A DNA stretch of 64,000 bases from an uncultured Acidimicrobiales bacterium (GTDB lineage Bacteria > Actinomycetota > Acidimicrobiia > Acidimicrobiales > Ilumatobacteraceae). The stretch covers positions 146,829-210,828 of the forward strand of contig CAWDLV010000002.1 in the NCBI GenBank assembly GCA_963803355.1, read 5' to 3'. Shown piece by piece: positions 357 through 32,768 of the stretch. The position numbers and the translations under genes are program-made. How positions within the stretch are numbered: position 1 is the first letter of the stretch; every line of letters begins with the position of its first letter. The notes beneath the pieces were generated by a model, which had not been told where the DNA came from, did no database searches, and was given only the letters and a program-made list of their open reading frames with translations.

Positions 357-1355
357 TCACTTCCTGGCGTAGGCGGCGTCGCCGTCGTACAGGAGGACCT
401 GCACGATGCTGAGCCGCTGCAGGTCGACCACCGGATCGACCCGCACCAGCAGGTCGAGCGAGCCCGGGCGGCGCTCCACCATGCTCACCCGACCGATCGG
501 GATGCCGCGCGGGAAGAGGCTCTCGGTCACCCCGGCGGTGATCACCCCGTCACCGACGGTGATGCAGGCCTCGGCATCCACCTGCTCGACCTCCAGCGGC
601 TTGCCCCGTCCCCGCCCCCGCACCCGGCCGAGCTCGGTGTCCTGACGCGGCGCCGCGGTGGTCGCCGTGACTGGGGCCGGCACGTTGGTGGGGAGCGTGC
701 CCGGCGCCGCCGCCGGCTTGGCCTGCGCCGAGCCCGTGGGCGTCGTGGTCGTGGTCGTCGTGGTGGTGGTGGTCGTGCTGGCCGCGTTGGCGCACGGCGC
801 GCTGGCGAACCGCACGCCCACCGTCGACTCCGGGTCCGAGAGCAGGCGCACCACCGACTGGCGAGGCGCGACCTGCTCCGTCCGGCCCACGAGCCCGCCT
901 GACGTGATCACCGGCATGCCGACCTTGATGCCCTGACGCGACCCCTGGTTGATGGTCACGGTCTGGTCGAAGTTCGAGGGCGCCCCCGAGACGACCTCGG
1001 CCTTCACCAGCGGGATGCCGGTGAGGGTGGGCAGGTTGAAGTGGGCCTTGAGCTGCTGGTTCTCGTACACAGCCGCTTGCGCCGCGATGGAGGCGCCGTC
1101 CTGTGCTTCCACCTGATCCCGGAGCTCGTCGTTCTCGGTCTTGAGGTGGTCGTAGCTCGTAACGCCCTTCCAGGCGCTGGCCACCGGTCGGGCCGCCAGC
1201 CGGGACACACTGCGCAGGGGCGAGGTAACGGTGATGAAGCCGGTGCGCGCGCCGTCGAGCACACGGTTCCCGCGCTGGTCGAAGGTGAGCAGGACGAGGG
1301 CCGTGATGACGAAGAGCACGAGCAGGCGGCGACGACCGACCGGGACAGTGGCCAC
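357..1355 (-). CDS. mreC: Rod shape-determining protein MreC, with a poly-Thr/Pro linker.
   Basis: The 332-aa ORF has an N-terminal TM segment and a coiled coil (ENDELRDQVEAQ). Its C-terminus is MreC-like (GIPIGRV...VDLQRL). A run of 13 Thr plus a Pro/Ala-rich linker lies mid-protein. It is located between mreB and mreD. Confidence 0.85.
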   Translation of the reverse strand: MATVPVGRRRLLVLFVITALVLLTFDQRGNRVLDGARTGFITVTSPLRSVSRLAARPVASAWKGVTSYDHLKTENDELRDQVEAQDGASIAAQAAVYENQQLKAHFNLPTLTGIPLVKAEVVSGAPSNFDQTVTINQGSRQGIKVGMPVITSGGLVGRTEQVAPRQSVVRLLSDPESTVGVRFASAPCANAASTTTTTTTTTTTTPTGSAQAKPAAAPGTLPTNVPAPVTATTAAPRQDTELGRVRGRGRGKPLEVEQVDAEACITVGDGVITAGVTESLFPRGIPIGRVSMVERRPGSLDLLVRVDPVVDLQRLSIVQVLLYDGDAAYARK

Positions 1356-4455: not shown

Positions 4456-5742
<1,287 letters not shown>

Positions 5743-5767: not shown

Positions 5768-6400
5768 CTACTTGATGGGACCGGTGCGATCGGCCGCGTT
5801 CCGGGCGGTGATCACTTCGTCGATGATGCCATATTCAACCGCGTCACCCGCCTCAATCACGAAGTCTCGGTCGGTGTCGGTGTGGATGCGGTCCAGGGGC
5901 TGGCCCGTGTGGGTGGCCAGGATCTGCTCCAAGAGGTCTCGCATGCGCATGATCTCCTTCGCCGCCAGCTCGAGGTCCGTGACCTGCGCGTAGCCGACCT
6001 GGCCATACGGCTGGTGGAGGAGCACGCGGGCGTGGGGCAGGGCCAACCGCTTGCCTTTGGTGCCGGCGGCCAGCAGCACCGCCGCGGCCGAGGCCGCCTG
6101 GCCGTAGCAGATCGTGGCGACATCGTTGCGGATGAACTGCATCGTGTCGTAGATGGCGAACAGCGCGGTGAGGTCGCCACCGGGACTGTTGATGTAGATG
6201 TTGATGTCCTTGTCCGGGTTCTCGGACTCGAGGTGCAGCATCTGGGCGCACACCAGGTTGGCGACGAACTCGTCGATGGCGGTACCGAGGAAGATGATGT
6301 TGTCCTTCAGCAGCCGCGAGTAGAGGTCGTAGGACTTCTCACCGAGATTCGTCTTCTCGATGACGTTCGGGACGTAGTAGTTGCTGGCGCGGGAGATCAC
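5768..6400 (-). CDS. clpP: ATP-dependent Clp protease proteolytic subunit ClpP (single copy).
   Basis: The 210-aa protein has the ClpP Ser/His catalytic context (INSPGG...[11 protein letters not shown]...LLHQP). It overlaps the tig stop by 4 nt. The order is tig-clpP-clpX. Confidence 0.95.
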
Positions 6401-7878
6401 CTGGCCTCCTCGGCGGGGTTCTCGTGGGGGGTGGCGGGCGCATGGCCCTCGTGAGCGTGGCCTTCGTGATCATGGCCCTCGTGATCGTGATCGTGGTCGT
6501 GGTCCTCGTGATCGTGATCGTGGCCCTCGTGATCGTGGCCCTCGTCATCGTGGTCGTGGTCGTGGTCCGACGGCAGCAGCACGTCGCGGTCGATGGGGTT
6601 GCCGTCCTCGTCGACGATCTCGACGTTGTGCAGCAGCCACTCGAGGGCCTTGGACTTGCGAATCTCGGCCCGCAGGCCGGACACGGCGTCATTGCGCTCG
6701 TAAGCCCGGCGGACCTGCTGGGGCTTCTGGTTCACCCGCATGGCGATCCGCTGGTACTCGACCTCCAGATCGTCGTCGGTGACCTCCAGGCCCTCGGAGT
6801 CGGCCACCGACCGCAAGGCGAGGTCCACCTTCACGGCCTGGCTGGCGCCGGCCCTCAAGCCCTCGGTGAGGGTGGCCGCATCCTGGCCGGTCATGGTCAG
6901 GTACTGGTCGATAGACATGCCCTGGGCCTGGAGGCCATTGACCATGTTCTCGACTCGGCTCCGCAGCTCGTCGTTCACCAGGGCCTCGGGCGGGTCTTCC
7001 TCGACCAGTCCGGCGAGGGCGGACCCGGCCCGCTCCAGCAGGAGCTGGCGGGCGTTGTTCAGCTTCACCGCTTCCATGCGCTCGTGGAGCTGGGCTCGCC
7101 AGGACTCGATCGTGTCGTGCTCGCCCTGGTTGTCGGCGACCCACTCGTCGGTGAGCTCGGCGGGCTCGAGCTCCTGCACCTTCTTGACCGCGACGGTGAA
7201 GTCGGCGGGTTCTTCGGTGCCACTCGGCGTGGCCGTGAACGTGACGGTGTCACCGTTCATGGCGCCCTGGAGCTGGTCGTCGAAGTGCTCCGCCACCCAG
7301 CCCCGGCCGAGCTCGTAGCTCCAGTCCTCGGTGTTGAGCCCCGGGACCGGATCGCCGTCGCGCTCGGCGTCGATGTCGAGCGTGAGGAAGTCGCCGTTCA
7401 AGGCCGGGCGGTCGAGGTCGACCAAGGTGCCCTGGCGGCGCAGCTCGGTGCTCACCACCTCATCGATCTCCTCGTCCTTCACCGTGACGGCCGGCAGCTC
7501 GACTCGCAGCCCGCCGTAGCCCGCCACCAAGACCTGGGGCCGCACCTCGACGGTGGCGTCGAAGGCGATCGGGCCGTCCTCGCTCGCCGGCGGTGATGTC
7601 GACCTCGGGCGGGGCGATGATGTCGACATCGTGGACCTTGACCGCGTCGGCCAGGTAGCGGGGGATGGCGTCCTGCAGCGCCTGCTGGCGGGCCGGGCCA
7701 GGCCGATGCGCGCCTCGAGCACTCGGCGAGGGGCCTTGCCCGGGCGGAAGCCGGGGAGCCGGACCTCGCGGGCGATCTTCTTGAACGCGTCGTCGATGTC
7801 CCTGTCGAACTCGGCCTCGTCGACCTCGACGGACAGCTTCACCTTGTTCCCCTCGAGGGACTCGACCGTGCTCTTCAC
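6397..7878 (-). CDS. tig: Trigger factor with an unusual His/Asp-rich C-terminal tail. As sequenced it is interrupted by two compensating frameshifts.
   Basis: The N-terminus is [59 protein letters not shown], from a GTG at 7878. The TF segment [37 protein letters not shown] is found in a different frame (ORF 7460..8179) between about 7585 and 7690. The C-terminus is ...[82 protein letters not shown]. Confidence 0.8.
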
Positions 7879-7968
7879 AGGGCGGCGAGTGTACCGGTGG
7901 CGGGCCTGGAACCCCGCAGGGATGGGCCCGGGTCGGCGGTGAGACGGCTGGTGCACCAAGATGGGGCC

Positions 7969-8238
7969 ATGACGACCTGGAAGCCGCACAGCCTGGCCCG
8001 GCCCCACCAGGACCAGCTCGACCTGCGGTCGGGCGACCGGGTGCAGGCCAAGGTCGAGCTGCCGGGGGTCCCCGAAGGGCACGCCGGGCAAGGTGATCCT
8101 GGCCAACGGCTTCAACTGGATGCGCTACCGGGTCCGGTTCACGAACGGCGCCGAGCTGGCCGACCTCGACGAGCGCCACCTGACGCCCACCGGTCGAGCG
8201 GCGCGGCGGCTGGCGAAGCGGGCAGCCAAGCGGGCCTG
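7969..8238 (+). CDS. Small hypothetical protein of about 89 aa. An apparent 1-nt indel sits in a G5 run near 8070.
   Basis: The start is ATG MTTWKPHSLARPHQDQLDLRSGDRVQAKVELPG... After a +1 shift the sequence continues protein-like (TPGKVILANGFNWMRYRVRFTNGAELADLDERHLTPTGRAARRLAKRAAKRA*). Without the shift the downstream frame is Arg/Pro/Gly junk. Confidence 0.3.
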
Positions 8239-8256: not shown

Positions 8257-8949
8257 ATGGCCGACGCTCCGCCCGGCAACCCGGCGCTGATCGGCGTGAC
8301 CGTGCGTCCCAACGGTCCGTACCTGGTCAGCGGCGACCTGTCCCTCGTCCGCAAGCGGGACGTGCAGTCCGAGCACGGCGAGCCGCTCACGTGGGAGTCG
8401 CTCGAACACCTCGACCCGTCGACCCCGTTGTACGCGCTGTGTCGCTGTGGCCAGTCGTCGAACAAGCCCTTCTGTGACGGCACGCACGCTCGGGTCGGCT
8501 TCGACGGGACGGAGAGCGCGACGAGCACCTACGACGAGCGCAGCCGGACCTTGGGCGGCACCCGCATCGTCGTGCGCGACGACCGGTCGATCTGCGCCCA
8601 CGCCGGCTTCTGCGGCAACCGGGTCACCAACGTCTGGAAGATGGTCCACGGCACAGAGGACTCGATCGTGCGAGGCCAGCTCATGGCTATGGTCGAGCGC
8701 TGCCCGTCCGGCGCCCTCTCCTACCGCCTCAAGGACCAAGACCACGATCTGGAGCCTGACCTCCCGGCCGAGGTGGCGCTGATCGCCGACGGCCCGATCT
8801 GGCTGACCGGCGGCGTGCCGGTGACCACCTCAGATGGCCAGACGCTCGAGACCCGCAACCGGGTCACGCTCTGCCGGTGCGGCGGCTCGAAGAACAAGCC
8901 GCTCTGTGACGGGACCCACAAGGCGATCGGCTTCACCGACCGGCCCTGA
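8257..8949 (+). CDS. Two-domain CDGSH iron-sulfur domain protein.
   Basis: Two CDGSH-type motifs are present: CRCGQSSNKPFCDGTH and CRCGGSKNKPLCDGTH. A Cys/His-rich segment (ICAHAGFCGNRV) lies between them. The ATG start is MADAPPGNPALIGVTVRPNGPYLVSGD. Confidence 0.7.
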   Translation: MADAPPGNPALIGVTVRPNGPYLVSGDLSLVRKRDVQSEHGEPLTWESLEHLDPSTPLYALCRCGQSSNKPFCDGTHARVGFDGTESATSTYDERSRTLGGTRIVVRDDRSICAHAGFCGNRVTNVWKMVHGTEDSIVRGQLMAMVERCPSGALSYRLKDQDHDLEPDLPAEVALIADGPIWLTGGVPVTTSDGQTLETRNRVTLCRCGGSKNKPLCDGTHKAIGFTDRP

Positions 8950-8971
8950 CCGGTCCGCGCGCCCGGCCGAT

Positions 8972-9025
8972 CCGTTCTGTTCCGCGAATTCGAACGCCCG
9001 CCGTCAGATCTGCGGAACGGAACGG
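8972..9025. repeat. 54-bp palindromic hairpin element, copy 1. A 14-bp inverted repeat (CCGTTCTGTTCCGC / GCGGAAC(g)GAACGG) flanks a 26-nt loop.
   Basis: Read directly from the sequence. A second copy with identical architecture lies at 33697..33750. Both copies are followed by G-rich tandem tracts. Confidence 0.5.
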
Positions 9026-9105
9026 GAGAGGGCGGGTGGCCCGGGCGGGTGGCATGGCGGCTGGCCCGGGCGGCGGGCACGGCGGGTGGCTCGGGGCGGG
9101 GGGCT
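9026..9105. repeat. G-rich direct-repeat tract following hairpin copy 1: (GGCGGGTGGC)x3 and GGCCCGGGCGG x2, ending GGGGCGGGGGGC.
   Basis: Direct repeats are visible in the sequence. The parallel tract after copy 2 (33757..33830) ends in the similar motif GGCGGGGGGGCATGGAAC. Confidence 0.4.
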
Positions 9106-9155
9106 TGGACCCGTCGCCCGGCCGGGCTCGGCGTCGCTCTGGAAGAATCGACCCG

Positions 9156-11793
9156 ATGCCACAGATCGTCGACGTCGTCCCCCACACCCACTGGGACCGC
9201 GAGTGGTACCTGCCGTTCCAGCGCTTCCGGCTGAAGCTGGTGGCCACGCTCGACGACCTCCTGTCCGACCTCGAGGCCAATCCGGACTTCACCCACTTCC
9301 TGCTCGACGGGCAGCTGGCGGCCGTCGACGACTACCTCGAGATCCGCCCCGACCGCGAGGACCTGGTGGTGCGTCTCAACCGTGAGGGCCGAGTTGCCAT
9401 GGGCCCTTGGTACACCCTCCCCGACGAGTTCCTCGTGTCGGGCGAGACGCTCGTGCGCAACCTGCAGATGGGGATGGACCGGGCGGACGAGCTCGGCGGC
9501 GCGATGACGGTCGGCTACCTGCCCGACATGTTCGGCCACATCGCGCAGATGCCACAGCTGCTGGCCCAGTTCGGCTTCGAGCACGCAGTCGTGTGGCGTG
9601 GCGTGCCGCCGGCCGTCACTCGCACCGGCTTCTGGTGGGAAGCCCCCGACGGCACCCGCGTCCGGGCCGAATACCTCCCTACCGGCTACGGCGTCGGTTC
9701 GAGGATGCCCGATGACGCGCTGGCCTTCCTCGAGCGGGTGTCGGGCTGGATCGAGGCCTACCGCGGCTTCGTCGGCCACGACCCGGTGCTCTGGATGAAC
9801 GGCAGCGACCACCTGCCCCACCAGGCCTTCGTGCCTCAGATCGTCGCCGATGCCACCAAGCTCTCCGAAGGCGAGCTCGAGCTGCGCATCACGTCGCTGG
9901 CGGAGCACCTGCGCCATGCCCCGACCGATGGGCTGGCCGTCTGGCGCGGCGAGCTCCGCAGCAGTGCTCGAACGAACCTCCTCTTCGGCGTGGGCTCCAA
10001 CCGGGTCGACGTGCGCCAGGCGGTGGCCCGCGCCGAGCGGGTGCTCGAGCAGGTGGCCGAGCCCCTGTGGGCCGCGTTCGTGCCGGCCTCGCTGTGGCCG
10101 GAGCGACTGCTCCAGCTGGCCTGGCGCCAGGTGGTGCTCAATGCCGCCCACGACTCCGTGTGCGCGTGCTCGCACGATGAGGTGGTCGCCGCCGTCGTCA
10201 ACCGTTACGCCGAGGCCCGCCAGATCGGCGACGGTCTGGCAGAGCAGGGCACACACCTCATCGGTGCCGCCCTCGCCGGCCGAGACCCGGTGGCGGTGAA
10301 CACGCTCGCCCGCCGACGGGGCGGCTTGGTCGAGCTCACGCGGCTCGGCGACGAACCGCTCCCCCACGAGCAGCTCCTCCATGCCACGGCCGCGCACCGG
10401 GTGCTGCACGAGCTGCGGGCCGCAGACGCGCCGATCCGACTCGAGGCCGAGCTCGACGTGCGGCCCGACGTCCACGGCGTGGGGTTCAGCGACCGCCTCG
10501 ACGGCCGACTCGATGTCCACCTCATCGTCGACCGCACCAAGGGCGGGCGGTTCCCGGCCCAGGCGAGCGTCCGGCGCCTGGCCGAGCTGGCGGCCGCCGA
10601 TCCCGACCGTCTGGTCGTCCTGAGCCTGGCCGACCGAGCCCGGCGACGGGTGCTCGTCCACGTGGCCGACGTGCCGGGGCTGGGCTGGGCGTCGGTGGCG
10701 CCGAGCGCGGCGCCGCCGGTCGTGGCCGATGGCGTCCGGATGAGCAACGGGTTGCTGACGGTGGAGGTAGACCCGGCTGGAGGGACCTTCGCCCTCGACG
10801 GTCACAGTGGGCTCGGTCGCCTCGTCGACGACGGAGACGCCGGCGACACGTACAGCTACAACCCACCCGAGCCGCGACGTCGTCGTGGAAGGCCCCGAGC
10901 AGCTCGACGTGACGGTGACCGAGTCGGGGCCGTCGCGGGCGCAGATCACGATCGACGCCACCTACCGGTGGCCGCGGCGGGTCGACGACCGCACCGGTAC
11001 CCGCGTCGGCGAAGAGATCGTTCCGATATCAACGACGTTGGAGCTTCGGGCCGGCGAACGCTTCGTGCGGGTCACCACCTCGCTGGACAACCGTTGCGAG
11101 GACCACCGCCTTCGGGCCTGGTTCCCGCTTCCGCAACGGGCGCGCGGCTCACGGGCCGAGAGCGCGTTCACGGTGGTGTGTCGCGGGTTGACGGCCGACA
11201 GCGGTCCGACCGAGGTCGGGCTGCCGACGTTCCCGTCCCGCCGCTTCGTCCAGGCGGGCGGCCTCACGGTGGCCCACGAGGGGCTGCTGGAGTACGAGCT
11301 GGTGGACGTCGATCGGGCCGGCACCGCCGGCGCGCTGGCGCTCACCTTGCTGCGGGCGTCGCGCTACCTCTCGCGTGGTCCGATGAGCTTGCGCCCCCTG
11401 CCAGCCGGTCCGGTCATCGAGCTGGCCGGGTCGCAGGTGCCGGGCCGCCACACGCTGCGCTGCGCCGTCGCCCTCGGCGACGTCGACCCCTACGCCTTGG
11501 TCGAGGATGCCTTCGTGGAGCTGCGGGTGGCCCAGGGCGCCGGTCTCGGCCAGCATCCCGACCGCTACCAGGCCCTCGACGTGTCAGGGCTGCCGGTGTC
11601 GAGCGTGCGCCGGCGCGCCGGGCGGCTCGAGGTGCGAGCCTTCAACCCGAAGCCCTACCCCGGCACGCTGCGCATCGCTGGCCGGCGCGGGCACGTGGTC
11701 GACCTCCGAGGCAACAAGGTCGAGCCCTTCGACGGCGGGCTCACGGTCCGGGCCTACGGCATCGTCACCGTGGCGCTCGACGAACCGGGCTGA
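9156..11793 (+). CDS. GH38 alpha-mannosidase (mannosylglycerate hydrolase-like). There is one apparent frameshift near 10870.
   Basis: The N-terminus is MPQIVDVVPHTHWDREWYLPFQ (the GH38 HxHWDREW motif). The large ORF continues to DTYSYNPPEP, then shifts into ORF 10807..11793 (DVVVEGPEQLDVTVTESGP...). The total is about 880 aa. The RBS is GGAAGAA, 9 nt upstream of the ATG. Confidence 0.8.
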
Positions 11794-12976
11794 GCAGCGC
11801 CTCGCCGCGCCGGCCCGCCCCCGACCAGGATGGGTCCAGGCCCGAGCAGGTGAGCGGGCGATCGACGTCGGCCTCCCACAACAGCGCCGGCCGCTCCGCA
11901 TGCCAGCGCAGCGCCACGCCGACGCGACCGTGGGCGGTCGGGAGGCCGTAGCCCTCGGCCTCCTGCCCCAGCCATTGCTCCGGGAAGGGCGCCGGGAAGA
12001 GGTCGACCGCGTCGCGGCCGTCGATGGTGACTCGCCGCGCCGCCCACGCCAGGCCGAGCACGCCGTCGGGCGGGGCGACGGCGGTCGCCTCGACGGGCGG
12101 GAGCCGCCGCCGAGCGGCTCGCAGGTCCCACGCGGCACGGCGCTCCCCGGCGCCGTCGAAGACCTCCTCGGCTGCTGCCAGCCCGGCATCCGCCGTCCAG
12201 GGGAGGGCGGCGTCGGTGCGGTGTCGCCGTGCCAGCTGCTCCGCGGCCTGGGCGACCTCGGGCAGGAGTCGCTCCGGCGTCACGCCGAGCCGGGCCAGCT
12301 CGGCCACACCGACCAGGAAGGCCGAGGCGTCGAGGTCGGCGTCGCCATGGCCGCAGAGGAGCAGCTCGGCCCGCAAGGCGACGAACACCACCTCCGGGTC
12401 AGTGGCCGGGAGGACCAACCGCACGGCGTGGCTCGTCTGGACGGCCCAGCCGCGGGCCACCTCGTCCGCCGACGGGAGGCCGGCCGGCAACGTTCCCGCG
12501 CCCCGCCCGTCGTGGGAGAGCGCCAGCCGGACCGTGGCCCGATGAGCCACCGGCAGGCTGATGGCGCAAGCCGGGACCTCGACACCCTTGATCGGCACCG
12601 TGGCGGGCGGCCGCGCCGTCAGCACGTCGCGCCGGCTGACAACGACCGCGAAGGGCGACGGCGAGCAGTTCTCGATCTCGACGACGGTGAGGCCACCGTC
12701 GTGGCCGACGGCGTAGATGCGCTGCACGGCGTCACCCCCCGGCACCCGCACCGCGGTCTCGAGCACCGGCGCACCGCCGATGCGTCGCTGCCGGCAGGTG
12801 GGCTCCACGGACGGCGAGTGCCAGCGGTCGTCGGCCGCCACCCACCAGTCGAGAGTGGGCGAGCCGTCGGCGGGGACGAGCGCGCCCCACGGCGTGACCC
12901 GGCCCCGCCAGGTACCGCCGACGACCCCCACCGAGACACCCGCCGTCGCCGCGGGCGCGGCGGACGGCGTCGTCAC
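11765..12976 (-). CDS. Conserved hypothetical protein of about 403 aa.
   Basis: The GTG start at 12976 overlaps the gpsA stop. The protein-like composition continues to a stop at 11765, and the 3' end overlaps the GH38 3' end by about 28 nt (convergent). The 990-aa track ORF is a read-through into gpsA antisense. Confidence 0.45.
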   Translation of the reverse strand: MTTPSAAPAATAGVSVGVVGGTWRGRVTPWGALVPADGSPTLDWWVAADDRWHSPSVEPTCRQRRIGGAPVLETAVRVPGGDAVQRIYAVGHDGGLTVVEIENCSPSPFAVVVSRRDVLTARPPATVPIKGVEVPACAISLPVAHRATVRLALSHDGRGAGTLPAGLPSADEVARGWAVQTSHAVRLVLPATDPEVVFVALRAELLLCGHGDADLDASAFLVGVAELARLGVTPERLLPEVAQAAEQLARRHRTDAALPWTADAGLAAAEEVFDGAGERRAAWDLRAARRRLPPVEATAVAPPDGVLGLAWAARRVTIDGRDAVDLFPAPFPEQWLGQEAEGYGLPTAHGRVGVALRWHAERPALLWEADVDRPLTCSGLDPSWSGAGRRGEALLSPVRRAPR

Positions 12977-13980
12977 GGCTGCAGGCCGGCCAGCTCGGGC
13001 TTGGCGTCGCGCTGCATGAGGGCCATGAGGGCGTCGGCCGCGGTGCGGCCGTGGTGACACACCTCCACCACCTGCTCGGTGATCGGCATGTCGACGTCGT
13101 GGGTCTGAGCGAGGTCGAGCACCGCCCGACAGCTCTTGACCCCCTCGGCCACCATGTTCATCTCGGCCAGGATCTCCTCGATCGGACGCCCGAGCGCCAG
13201 CTCGTGGCCGACGGTGTTGTTGCGGCTCTGTCGCGACGAGCAGGTCGCGATCAGATCGCCCATGCCGGCCAGGCCGGCAAAGGTCAGCGACAGGCCGCCG
13301 AGCGCCACGCCGAGGCGGGTCATCTCGGCCAGACCGCGGGTGATGAGCGTGGCCCGGGTGTTGTCGCCGAAGCCCATGCCCTCGCACATCCCGGAGGCAA
13401 TGGCGATCACGTTCTTCACCACCCCGGCCACCTCGCAGCCGACCAGATCCGGGTTGGTGTAGACCCGCAGCCGCATGGTGGCGAAGATGCGTTGGAGCTC
13501 GCCGCCGATGATGTCGTCGTCGATGGCCACCACGCTCGCGGCGGGCTGACCGGCCAGCACCTCCTTGGCGAGGTTCGGCCCGGTCAGCACGGCCACCGGG
13601 TGCCCAGGCAGCACGTCGTTGACCACCTCGCTCATGCGCTTCAGGGTGCCGAGCTCGAGCCCCTTGGCCAAGCTGACCACGGGCACCCATGGGCGGACGT
13701 ACGGCGCGGCCTCGTCCAGGACCGACCGGAAGCCGTGTGACGGCGTAGCCATCACCACGACATCGGCCGAGCCGACGGCCGCGCCGAGGTCGTCGGTGGC
13801 CTGCAGCTGCGCGGGCAGGGTGAACGTCGGCAGGTAGTCGACGTTCACGTGGCCGTGGTTGATCTGGTCCGCCAGCTCCGGACGCCGGGCCCACAGGGTG
13901 GTCGGCGTGTTCTGCGCGGCCAGCGCGGCAACAGTGGTCCCCCACGAGCCGGCCCCGATGACGGCGACGCGGATCGGCAC
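12973..13980 (-). CDS. gpsA: NAD(P)H-dependent glycerol-3-phosphate dehydrogenase.
   Basis: MPIRVAVIGAGSWGTTVAALAA is a Rossmann fold. GpsA family conservation runs throughout the 335 aa. Confidence 0.9.
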   Translation of the reverse strand: MPIRVAVIGAGSWGTTVAALAAQNTPTTLWARRPELADQINHGHVNVDYLPTFTLPAQLQATDDLGAAVGSADVVVMATPSHGFRSVLDEAAPYVRPWVPVVSLAKGLELGTLKRMSEVVNDVLPGHPVAVLTGPNLAKEVLAGQPAASVVAIDDDIIGGELQRIFATMRLRVYTNPDLVGCEVAGVVKNVIAIASGMCEGMGFGDNTRATLITRGLAEMTRLGVALGGLSLTFAGLAGMGDLIATCSSRQSRNNTVGHELALGRPIEEILAEMNMVAEGVKSCRAVLDLAQTHDVDMPITEQVVEVCHHGRTAADALMALMQRDAKPELAGLQP

Positions 13981-31216: not shown

Positions 31217-32768
31217 TCAGGCTTCGGTGGCCTCAGCCGTGCGCTCTGGCGCGGGCAGGCCCGCGTCGCGCTTGCCTCCGTCGTCGCCGCTGCCACCGTT
31301 GGTCGCGGCGCCATTGGTCGACGGGCCCTCGTTCGAGCCGAGACCGCCGTGGAGCACGCCTCGCGCCATCTTCAGCCCGGTGATGCCCTGCGACAGGGCC
31401 TGCGCGAGCACCTCCGAGAGGCCCTGGGCCCCGTTCAGCACGATCAGCTGGTCGACGGAGCCGAAGGGCTTGGCCGCGGCCTCGACGATCGCCGGCCATT
31501 GCTGCGCCAGCTGCTGGCCGATGACCGCGTCCTGGTTCTCGGCCGAGCGCGATGGCGCGGGCCTTGATGGCATCGGCCTCCGCCAGCCCCTTGGCCTTCA
31601 CGGCTTGGCCCTCGGCCATGCCCTTCGCCTCGGTGGCGTCGGCCTCGGCCTGCCCGATGTTGCGGGTGGCCTCGGCCTGGGCCGACGCCTCCAACCGGAC
31701 GTGCTCGGCCTCGGCCGAAGCGGCCAGGCGCACCTGATCGGCCTGGGCTTGGGCCGCCAGCTTCACCCGGGCCGCCTGCGCTGCGGCATCGAGCTCGGTC
31801 TCCTGCTTCTTGGCCTCGGCACCGGCGATGCGGGCATCGCGCTGCGCCTTGGCCAAGGTGACCTGCTCGTAGGCCTTGGCGTCGGCTGGCTTGCGTACGG
31901 TGGCCTGCAGCCGAGCCTCCTCGCGGTGTCCTTCGAGCTCGGCCACCTTGGTCTCCTCGACCACCACCTGCTGGCGGGCCTGGGCCTCCGAGAGCGGGCC
32001 GGCCTGGCTCTGGTCGGCCACCGCGCGGTCGATCTCGGCCTGGTAGCCGGCCTGCTTGACCTGGCTCTGGCGGCGGGCCTCGGCCTTCAGCGCCTCGGCG
32101 TCCTGCTCCTTCTGCGTCGCCTCCTGATCGGCACCGGCCTGCGCGATTCGAGCCTCGCGCTGCACGGCGGCGGCATGGGGCCGGGCCAGGTTGGCGATGT
32201 AGCCGGATGGATCGTCGATCTCCTGGATCTGGAGGGAGTCGACGATGAGGCCGAGCTTCTCCATCTCCACGCCCGACGAGGCCCGGGTGAGCTGGGTGAG
32301 CTTCTCCCGATCGCGGATCATCTCCTCCACCGTCATGTTGCCGACGATGGCGCGGAGGTGGCCGGCGAAGACGTTGTGGACCCGGTAGTCCATCTGCTCC
32401 TGCTGGTCGAGGAAGCGGCGGGCGGCGTTGGCGATCGAGGCGTAGTCGTCGCCAACCTTGTAGATGACCACGCCCTTAAGGCCGAGGGGGATGCCCTGGT
32501 GGGTGACGCAGTCGATGGCCAGCTCAGCCTGGCGCAGGTCGAGCGACAGGCGACGGACGACCTGCACACCGGGAACGACGAGCGTGCCCTTCCCGGTGAT
32601 GATCTTGAAGCCGAGGGTCTGCTCGACGCCTTCGGGGGCGGAGTGGCGCCAACCCGAGATGACGAGGGCCTCGTTGGGTTCGGCGACGCGCCACATCGCC
32701 TTGAAGATGATGATCACGGCGACCACGGCGACGGCCGCGATGATGAGGACGGTTAAGGCTCCGCTCAT
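31217..32768 (-). CDS. Flotillin-like SPFH/band-7 family protein. There is one apparent frameshift near 31560.
   Basis: The N-terminal TM is MSGALTVLIIAAVAVVAVIIIFKAMWRV. The SPFH domain is followed by a long Ala/Glu/Gln-rich coiled coil. The C-terminus continues in ORF 31217..31573 (ENQDAVIGQQLAQQWPAIVEAAAKPFGSVDQLIVLNGAQG). Confidence 0.8.

Follow-up and report, generated by a model that had tools for sequence, protein, structure and literature searches.

Trigger factor is the chaperone that each nascent bacterial protein encounters first. It ranks among the most abundant proteins of the cytosol, present at or above ribosome numbers in Escherichia coli, and docks on the ribosome at its exit, which the folding helper SlyD does not. 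To our knowledge trigger factor has no known metal function. Here we analyse the trigger factor gene tig of an uncultured Acidimicrobiales bacterium (Ilumatobacteraceae), which lies in a stretch of 64,000 nucleotides (nt) of contig CAWDLV010000002.1 (assembly GCA_963803355.1, positions 146,829 to 210,828), hereafter referred to as the window. The encoded protein carries a His/Asp-rich C-terminal tail that is genuine, is conserved in its clade, follows a clear sequence grammar, is predicted to be disordered and may well act as a metal buffer.

His-rich segments have been described in a number of proteins involved in metal handling. SlyD has a variable, unstructured His-rich tail that binds up to seven Ni(II) and also Zn, and it is thought to store nickel (PMC7055735). 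The His tail of UreE, HGHHHAHHDHHAHSH, adds Ni capacity and is dispensable for delivery (PMC7055735). The His-rich C-terminus of mycobacterial GroEL1 is linked to copper homeostasis (bioRxiv 10.1101/766162). Low-complexity regions of approximately 36 residues, with 53% His, 23% Asp and 9% Glu, mark Co/Ni-binding proteins annotated as CobW (PMC6821194). The tail described below is of this low-complexity type, with a core of a few tens of residues in which His is the most frequent residue, followed by Asp and then Glu.

The trigger factor and its tail

The window protein is a trigger factor by profile, fold and gene context. It matches Pfam Trigger_N (2.2e-20) and Trigger_C (2.4e-30) and scores 268.6 bits with the NCBIfam equivalog TIGR00115, for which the cutoff is 180.2, over profile positions 2-410 of 410. 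The ribosome-binding signature GFRPGKAP, of the GFRxGxxP type, is found at residues 43-50, and the tig-clpP-clpX neighbourhood is seen in the window as well as in related loci. An AlphaFold2 model, made with an alignment of 46 sequences, matches trigger factor structures 2vrh_A, 1w26_A and 3gty_X (Foldseek E 1e-19 to 1e-17) and has predicted local distance difference test scores (pLDDT) above 90 across approximately residues 121-430. Its middle domain is confidently beta-rich (pLDDT >90), matches the peptidyl-prolyl isomerase domain of E. coli trigger factor (1l1p, TMt 0.57) and can also be superposed on FKBP domains, among them the one of SlyD (7oxg_B, TMt 0.67, root-mean-square deviation 2.7 A). 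Pfam FKBP_C gave no match in the window protein at E<=0.001; PF00254 is present in some trigger factor homologues. According to the model a central FKBP-like domain of the peptidyl-prolyl isomerase type is present.

The same reading frame runs past the conserved C-domain into a tail of 56 residues (438-493) and then reaches a stop. Altogether 77 residues follow the end of the TIGR00115 match at residue 416, and 56 of these make up the tail. It contains 18 His as compared with four in the 437 residues of the body, an enrichment with a chance probability of about 3e-23 at the His rate of the body and about 3e-17 at a rate of 2% His. An earlier note on the window, made from its letters alone, had placed such a tail in frame beyond the canonical fold and directly before an overlapping clpP start. 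This holds: the frame is unbroken from the conserved C-domain to the C-terminus, the translation of the window is identical to the tail letters quoted there, and the clpP start overlaps the tig stop in a GTGA. The coordinates given were also mostly right, with the correction that the tail starts at 6567, 7 nt upstream of 6560.

Order is lost towards the tail of the model. The pLDDT blocks of residues 411-430 are 92-94, the block 431-440 is at 79 and all subsequent blocks are at or below 50. Within the latter the block means of the His/Asp/Glu-rich core are 46-50 and drop to 35-40 for residues 471-493, which amounts to approximately 35-50 overall from residue 441 on, and from there to the end the model lacks secondary structure. 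The tail is thus, as modelled, a disordered (H-X)n polyampholyte that would offer N and O ligands only. Judged by the model and the trigger factor structures, it hangs off the C-terminal 'arm' domain, the one that forms the client cradle. The coordinates of all features are listed in Table 1.

Table 1. Features of the tig-clpP-clpX segment of the window
Feature	Position	Strand	Description and basis
tig coding sequence	7878..6397	minus	493 residues; GTG start at 7878, TGA stop 6399-6397; open reading frame and translation
Canonical trigger factor region, residues 12-416	6631..7845	minus	TIGR00115 end-to-end match
Conserved post-profile segment, residues 417-437	6568..6630	minus	Last ordered piece ahead of the tail; homologue alignments and pLDDT
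His/Asp/Glu-rich core, residues 438-479	6442..6567	minus	42 residues: 17 His, 13 Asp, 6 Glu, 5 Gly, 1 Ala
Distal tail, residues 480-493	6400..6441	minus	14 residues; last five codons also hold the putative clpP ribosome-binding site; sequence
Copy 1 of the 63-bp unit	6505..6567	minus	Tandem Repeats Finder and codon-by-codon comparison
Copy 2 of the 63-bp unit	6442..6504	minus	3 synonymous and 5 non-synonymous codon differences to copy 1
Out-of-frame stretch in the tig N-domain, residues ~61-99	7582..7700	minus	1-nt deletion between 7700 and 7699, 1-nt insertion (C) at 7582
GTGA overlap	6397..6400	minus	clpP GTG start 6400-6398 and tig TGA stop 6399-6397
GAGGAGG, Shine-Dalgarno-like for clpP	6405..6411	minus	In tig codons Glu-Glu-Ala, 4 nt ahead of the clpP GTG; sequence
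clpP	5768..6400	minus	210 residues; Pfam CLP_protease 4e-75; NCBIfam ClpP subfamily models above cutoff; 95% identity to ClpP of L017
clpX	4456..5742	minus	428 residues; Pfam zf-C4_ClpX and AAA_2; 98% identity to ClpX of L017

The note had further described the tail as built from a 15-bp tandem repeat. A 15-bp periodicity does exist and is weak (Tandem Repeats Finder: 7.2 copies, 73% matches, 17% indels, score 105), whereas the dominant unit measures 63 bp or 21 residues (1.9 copies, 91% matches, score 205). Since the two 21-residue copies differ at few codons, a fairly recent tandem duplication has lengthened the tail in this genome. Its codons are mixed, with both CAC and CAT and both GAC and GAT, and GAT accounts for seven of the 13 Asp codons in the tail versus four of the 38 in the body. 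With this mixed codon use and the excess of GAT, the tail is not a homogeneous DNA microsatellite.

A tail of this kind could in principle stem from read-through after an indel, or from the misreading of a poly-Thr linker in another frame, and the window gives some grounds for asking. In the DNA alignment with the closest related loci, L017 and L018, a compensating -1/+1 pair of indels leaves 39 codons of the Trigger_N domain out of frame. The shifted frame of this stretch encodes exactly the conserved homologue sequence, and pLDDT is below 50 at residues 59-102. The pair is probably a sequence error, the alternative being a damaged tig; the N-domain is intact if both indels are errors. Indels are also seen in two nearby genes (described below), and the +1 frame of the tail DNA yields a Thr-rich peptide. 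Against an artefact, the tail is in the frame of the well-conserved C-domain just upstream; P0001, the closest homologue, shares both its frame and its terminal AEEAR-stop (...HETAAEEAR, window protein ...HENPAEEAR); 118 of 120 independent homologues have His/Asp at this place; and the third frame gives a Pro/Arg peptide interrupted by stops. For these reasons the tail is genuine, in frame and not read-through, and we attach next to no probability to an artefact. The frameshift pair lies approximately 1 kb upstream of the tail, and none of the indels falls in the tail or in the C-domain ahead of it. A stop or frameshift before the repeat, which the note had named as a possible refutation, is not seen in the window: the frame is unbroken from the C-domain to AEEAR and the tig frameshifts are confined to the N-domain.

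Both forms of artefact were considered as candidates in their own right and rejected, the misread poly-Thr linker since the His/Asp frame is set by all homologues and by the conserved domain next to the tail, the read-through since homologues have the tail despite the indels elsewhere in the window. Scanning the window for His-rich tracts identified the tig tail as the only clear one in a recognised coding frame. The remaining matches look like out-of-frame high-GC sequence; one of these, at 745-834, was checked individually and lies out of frame within MreC. The mreC gene (357-1355, minus strand) encodes a poly-Thr linker, TTTTTTTTTTTTP, at approximately 745-834, of which an out-of-frame reading gives HDHHHHDDHDH. 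In this high-GC genome, one and the same ACC/CAC/GAC-type DNA reads as poly-Thr in one frame and as His-Asp repeats in another.

The other indels were noticed upstream of tig. For a GH38 alpha-mannosidase-like gene (9159-11790, plus strand), the alignment with its homologue in L018 stays in frame 3 as far as 10862 and resumes in frame 1 at 10867, a frameshift that is either an indel error or the mark of a pseudogene. A small open reading frame at approximately 7966-8191 (plus strand), between tig and a gene for a CDGSH protein, encodes a conserved protein of 94 residues and unassigned function that is split across frames, with the change near 8066-8091; it is intact in L017. Taken with the pair in tig, at least four indels fall within approximately 3.3 kb; they have the look of errors of sequencing or assembly, or else of recent decay, and suggest an error-prone assembly. 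L018 itself (ENA contig_16316, 8515-13307) has its clpX, folC-like gene and mreC called truncated or split and probably bears indel errors as well. In L011, from a Microthrixaceae genome (3001-3456), the tig frame stops after 151 codons with an end that looks out of frame, a probable further frameshift in a public metagenome genome.

Distribution and grammar of the tails

The close set consisted of the best 120 database homologues, which share 55-73% identity with the window protein and originate from four independent sources (JGI, ENA, NCBI and Logan assemblies). Those with names come from Acidimicrobiales/Ilumatobacteraceae metagenome genomes, and the named related loci from metagenome genomes of Ilumatobacteraceae, Ilumatobacter, Acidimicrobiaceae and Actinomycetes. 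At least five His follow the VEIVD motif in 118 of the 120, which removes the other refutation envisaged in the note, namely that close relatives would lack the extension. The tails have a median of 12.5 His per 51 residues and consist of 27.6% Asp and 25.3% His; the bodies have 0.9% His. Their length ranges from 27 to 101 residues and their sequences vary so widely that they are not alignable. The very end, EEAR, EEAK or EEAQ, is common to the closest homologues (P0001-P0004). The terminal AEEAR codons are constrained separately, since they encode the putative Shine-Dalgarno sequence of clpP and the stop overlaps the clpP start.

A wider search covered 1.84 billion proteins clustered at 50% identity, each cluster being represented by one member, the C-termini of which were read and called His-rich when containing at least five His. 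His-rich tails were found in 122 of 127 proteins with at least 55% identity to the window protein, in four of 10 at 45-55%, in seven of 40 at 35-45% and in three of 54 below 35%. The tail is therefore unusual among trigger factors in general, as the note had it, and at the same time the rule in its clade. Most of the distant proteins do have a long C-terminal tail, rich in Asp, Glu, Ala, Pro and Thr and without His; these appear to belong to other Actinomycetota. The prevalence of such acidic tails suggests that the His/Asp tail is a variant, specific to the clade and enriched in His, of a generic acidic disordered tail, and the acidic tail is likely the ancestral state. In the Acidimicrobiales/Ilumatobacteraceae lineage it has turned into an alternating His-Asp (H-X)n tract of variable length, growing and shrinking through tandem duplications such as the recent one of 63 bp in this genome.

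His/Asp-rich C-termini are also found on trigger factors of a Burkholderiales genome (L008), of Parvibaculum (L012) and of a Pseudomonadota genome (L014). These share 23-33% identity with the window protein, and clpP follows approximately 85 nt to 2.4 kb downstream without overlap. The low identity and separate clpP suggest an independent origin, and the sequences indicate that His/Asp tails probably arose repeatedly, in Acidimicrobiia and in some Proteobacteria. This in turn speaks for selection at the level of the protein.

Grammar was studied in 119 His-rich tails with together 6161 residues, with expectations obtained from shuffles. A His is followed by another His at i+2 in 969 cases versus 604 expected, whereas directly neighbouring His are avoided (69 observed, 626 expected). 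Asp directly follows His 938 times and Cys is absent from all 6161 residues. The most frequent pentamers are HDHDH and DHDHD, followed by those of the GHDHE and HEGHD types.

Possible functions of the tail

We favour the reading that this disordered tail forms a SlyD-like, multi-site buffer for Zn, Ni or Co on an abundant chaperone. Its composition and the analogy with SlyD, UreE and GroEL1 point to metal binding and to a physiological role of this kind, and we hold the reading to be reasonably probable. Some 17 imidazoles with interleaved carboxylates and without Cys would let each chain take up several divalent transition-metal ions. A pattern in which HxH alternates with carboxylates and thiolates are lacking should favour borderline or hard divalent ions, the expected preference being for Zn2+ first, then Ni2+, Co2+ and Cu2+, bound reversibly and with moderate affinity. 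The tail would then constitute a high-capacity reservoir, comparable to what SlyD, UreE and mycobacterial GroEL1 have in theirs. With several sites per chain on a protein as abundant as trigger factor, and given the cellular Zn quotas of E. coli, the approximately 17 conserved His would add many exchangeable metal sites and hence a sizeable exchangeable metal pool. The analogy with SlyD is close in architecture too, since the middle domain of trigger factor shares its FKBP fold. A secondary and less likely option is that metal is handed to nascent chains or to metalloenzymes at the exit site.

A more far-reaching proposal is that of a ribosome-tethered metallochaperone, which would have arisen repeatedly and would maintain a local pool of Zn2+ (or Co2+, Ni2+ or Fe2+) to be loaded co-translationally on metalloproteins, peptide deformylase or methionine aminopeptidase. 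It would be the bacterial counterpart of the untested eukaryotic model in which METAP1 is contested by ZNG1 and by NAC, the ribosome-associated analogue of trigger factor (Chem Rev 2024, PMC11672702). We consider this proposal improbable.

A number of points weigh against a buffer. Slippage on GACCAC-type DNA can by itself give His-Asp alternation. Two close relatives have little His (one in P0080, four in P0093); this near-loss, together with the wide variation in length and sequence, implies that any function tolerates large change or even loss. Given the purely acidic tails of distant trigger factors, what is essential may be negative charge or disorder, and not His. A search with only the tail in a database of 5.8 billion proteins yielded 1425 candidates that share words with it, none at E<=0.001, so that it provides no census of other families with such tracts; the same search of PDB sequences at E<=10 gave no match. 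Of the genes in the immediate neighbourhood, namely clpP, clpX, the gene for the CDGSH iron-sulfur protein and the GH38 gene, none stood out as one for metal homeostasis. Scanning the window with the Zur consensus TGAAAATGATTTTCA and at most three mismatches revealed no Zur-box-like site upstream of tig, the sole match being weak and far off at 32702, which lends no support to regulation by zinc; this consensus is that of actinobacterial Zur and may not apply to Acidimicrobiia.

A rival reading is that of a tail that is neutral or bears charge only. An acidic disordered extension would be needed for solubility or for the repulsion of rRNA or clients, and GAC/CAC slippage in a high-GC lineage would have amplified His-Asp without any specific metal role. 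The acidic, His-free tails of most trigger factors at 30-47% identity fit such a scenario, as do the variable length and unalignable sequences, the recent 63-bp duplication and the two relatives that nearly lost their His. Furthermore, the tail DNA gives poly-Thr in another frame while the poly-Thr linker of MreC reads His/Asp-rich out of frame, which suggests that such sequence arises easily in this genome. It is harder to reconcile with charge alone that His enrichment was kept in 122 of 127 proteins of a clade diverged to 55% identity and that it recurs in unrelated proteobacterial trigger factors. The DNA repeats are imperfect and synonymous codons are mixed, yet HxH is kept and His-His avoided. 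In addition, His is costly and usually rare, as in the trigger factor bodies. We regard a charge-only or neutral tail as unlikely, albeit deserving serious weight; were it true, the finding would shrink to a compositional curiosity.

That His alternates strictly with Asp or Glu, and that Cys is lacking, would also suit a titratable polyampholyte. His-Asp titrates near cytosolic pH, hence the tail could pass from strongly negative to near neutral upon acidification and thereby alter dimerisation, ribosome docking or client binding, for which its attachment to the arm domain of the client cradle is well placed. The named relatives give no pointer to cytosolic pH stress, and the characterised bacterial His-rich tails cited above all bind metal. 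A pH or charge switch is, in our view, very unlikely.

The junction with clpP brings in another explanation. The GAGGAGG in the last tig codons would, from its sequence and position, serve as the ribosome-binding site of clpP, the translation of which is probably coupled to that of tig. The 4-nt overlap is kept in the closest loci, L017 and L018, and an ATGA overlap was read at the junction in L004-L006. Both the GTGA with GAGGAGG and the kept overlap would allow the tail to act as a translational sensor, in which approximately 18 His and 13 Asp codons tie the translation of clpP-clpX to charged tRNA-His and tRNA-Asp or to ribosome speed. This idea is weakened by His/Asp tails that persist where clpP is separated, both in L001-L003, with approximately 17-45 nt from the tig stop to the start of the ClpP match, and in the three proteobacterial loci with their wider gaps. 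Selection on protein grammar, with HxH and no His-His, and mixed synonymous codon use argue against it as well, which makes a codon sensor highly improbable.

Other features of this neighbourhood were noted in passing. A single clpP lies between tig and clpX in the window, and likewise in L017 and L018. Many Actinomycetota carry a clpP1-clpP2 pair, and a second clpP may be located elsewhere in the genome. Upstream of tig and divergent from it, 8269-8943 (plus strand) encodes a protein in which a CDGSH-type iron-sulfur motif occurs twice, as CRCGQSSNKPFCDGTH and as CRCGGSKNKPLCDGTH; the divergent arrangement of the two genes is kept in L017.

Among the unsolved questions of metal homeostasis is the way in which metals are buffered and allotted to freshly synthesised proteins. 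The clade-wide fusion of trigger factor with a His tail, together with its probable proteobacterial re-inventions, provides a genetic handle on co-translational metal buffering or delivery. On a practical level, tailed trigger factors would bind nickel-nitrilotriacetic acid and turn up as contaminants when His-tagged proteins are purified from these hosts. The tail can further serve as a lineage marker for Ilumatobacteraceae-like Acidimicrobiia.

Comparison with known systems

Trigger factor and His-rich chaperone tails are known already; their combination, its conservation throughout a clade and its recurrence elsewhere appear to be undescribed. A literature search for a His-rich trigger factor tail found no description, with subscription-only literature outside its coverage.

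Canonical trigger factor, as represented by E. coli Tig (1W26, 2VRH), has the same three-part architecture, fold and tig-clpP-clpX context. The window protein differs in the 77 residues that it adds past the profile end and in a stop that overlaps the clpP start.

SlyD resembles it as a cytosolic folding helper of the FKBP fold whose His-rich C-terminal tail is likewise unstructured and variable, and the FKBP domain of the model superposes on that of Thermus thermophilus SlyD (TMt 0.67). The window protein is nevertheless not a member of the SlyD family: it has Trigger_N and Trigger_C, and only the FKBP core superposes. In addition, the SlyD tail is rich in His and Cys, whereas the tails of the window clade are devoid of Cys and show strict His-Asp alternation. 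No link of the tailed trigger factor to hydrogenase or urease maturation was seen.

The tail of UreE has runs of adjacent His where those of trigger factor alternate His and Asp. GroEL1 is similar in being a general chaperone of actinobacteria in which the usual low-complexity C-terminal tail is replaced by a His-rich one. It differs in belonging to another chaperone family and in having a shorter tail that is specific to one paralogue, whereas here a single housekeeping tig next to clpP is concerned.

The low-complexity stretches of COG0523/CobW proteins are matched in composition and length class by the trigger factor core, with its 42 residues of 40% His, 31% Asp and 14% Glu. No sequence similarity is detectable, and the carriers differ: COG0523/CobW and UreE are dedicated metallochaperones, whereas trigger factor is a general, ribosome-bound chaperone. 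The acidic tails of other Actinomycetota trigger factors occupy the same position and are similar in length, predicted to be unstructured and strongly negative. These have few or no His, whereas the window clade has swapped approximately every second acidic residue for His.

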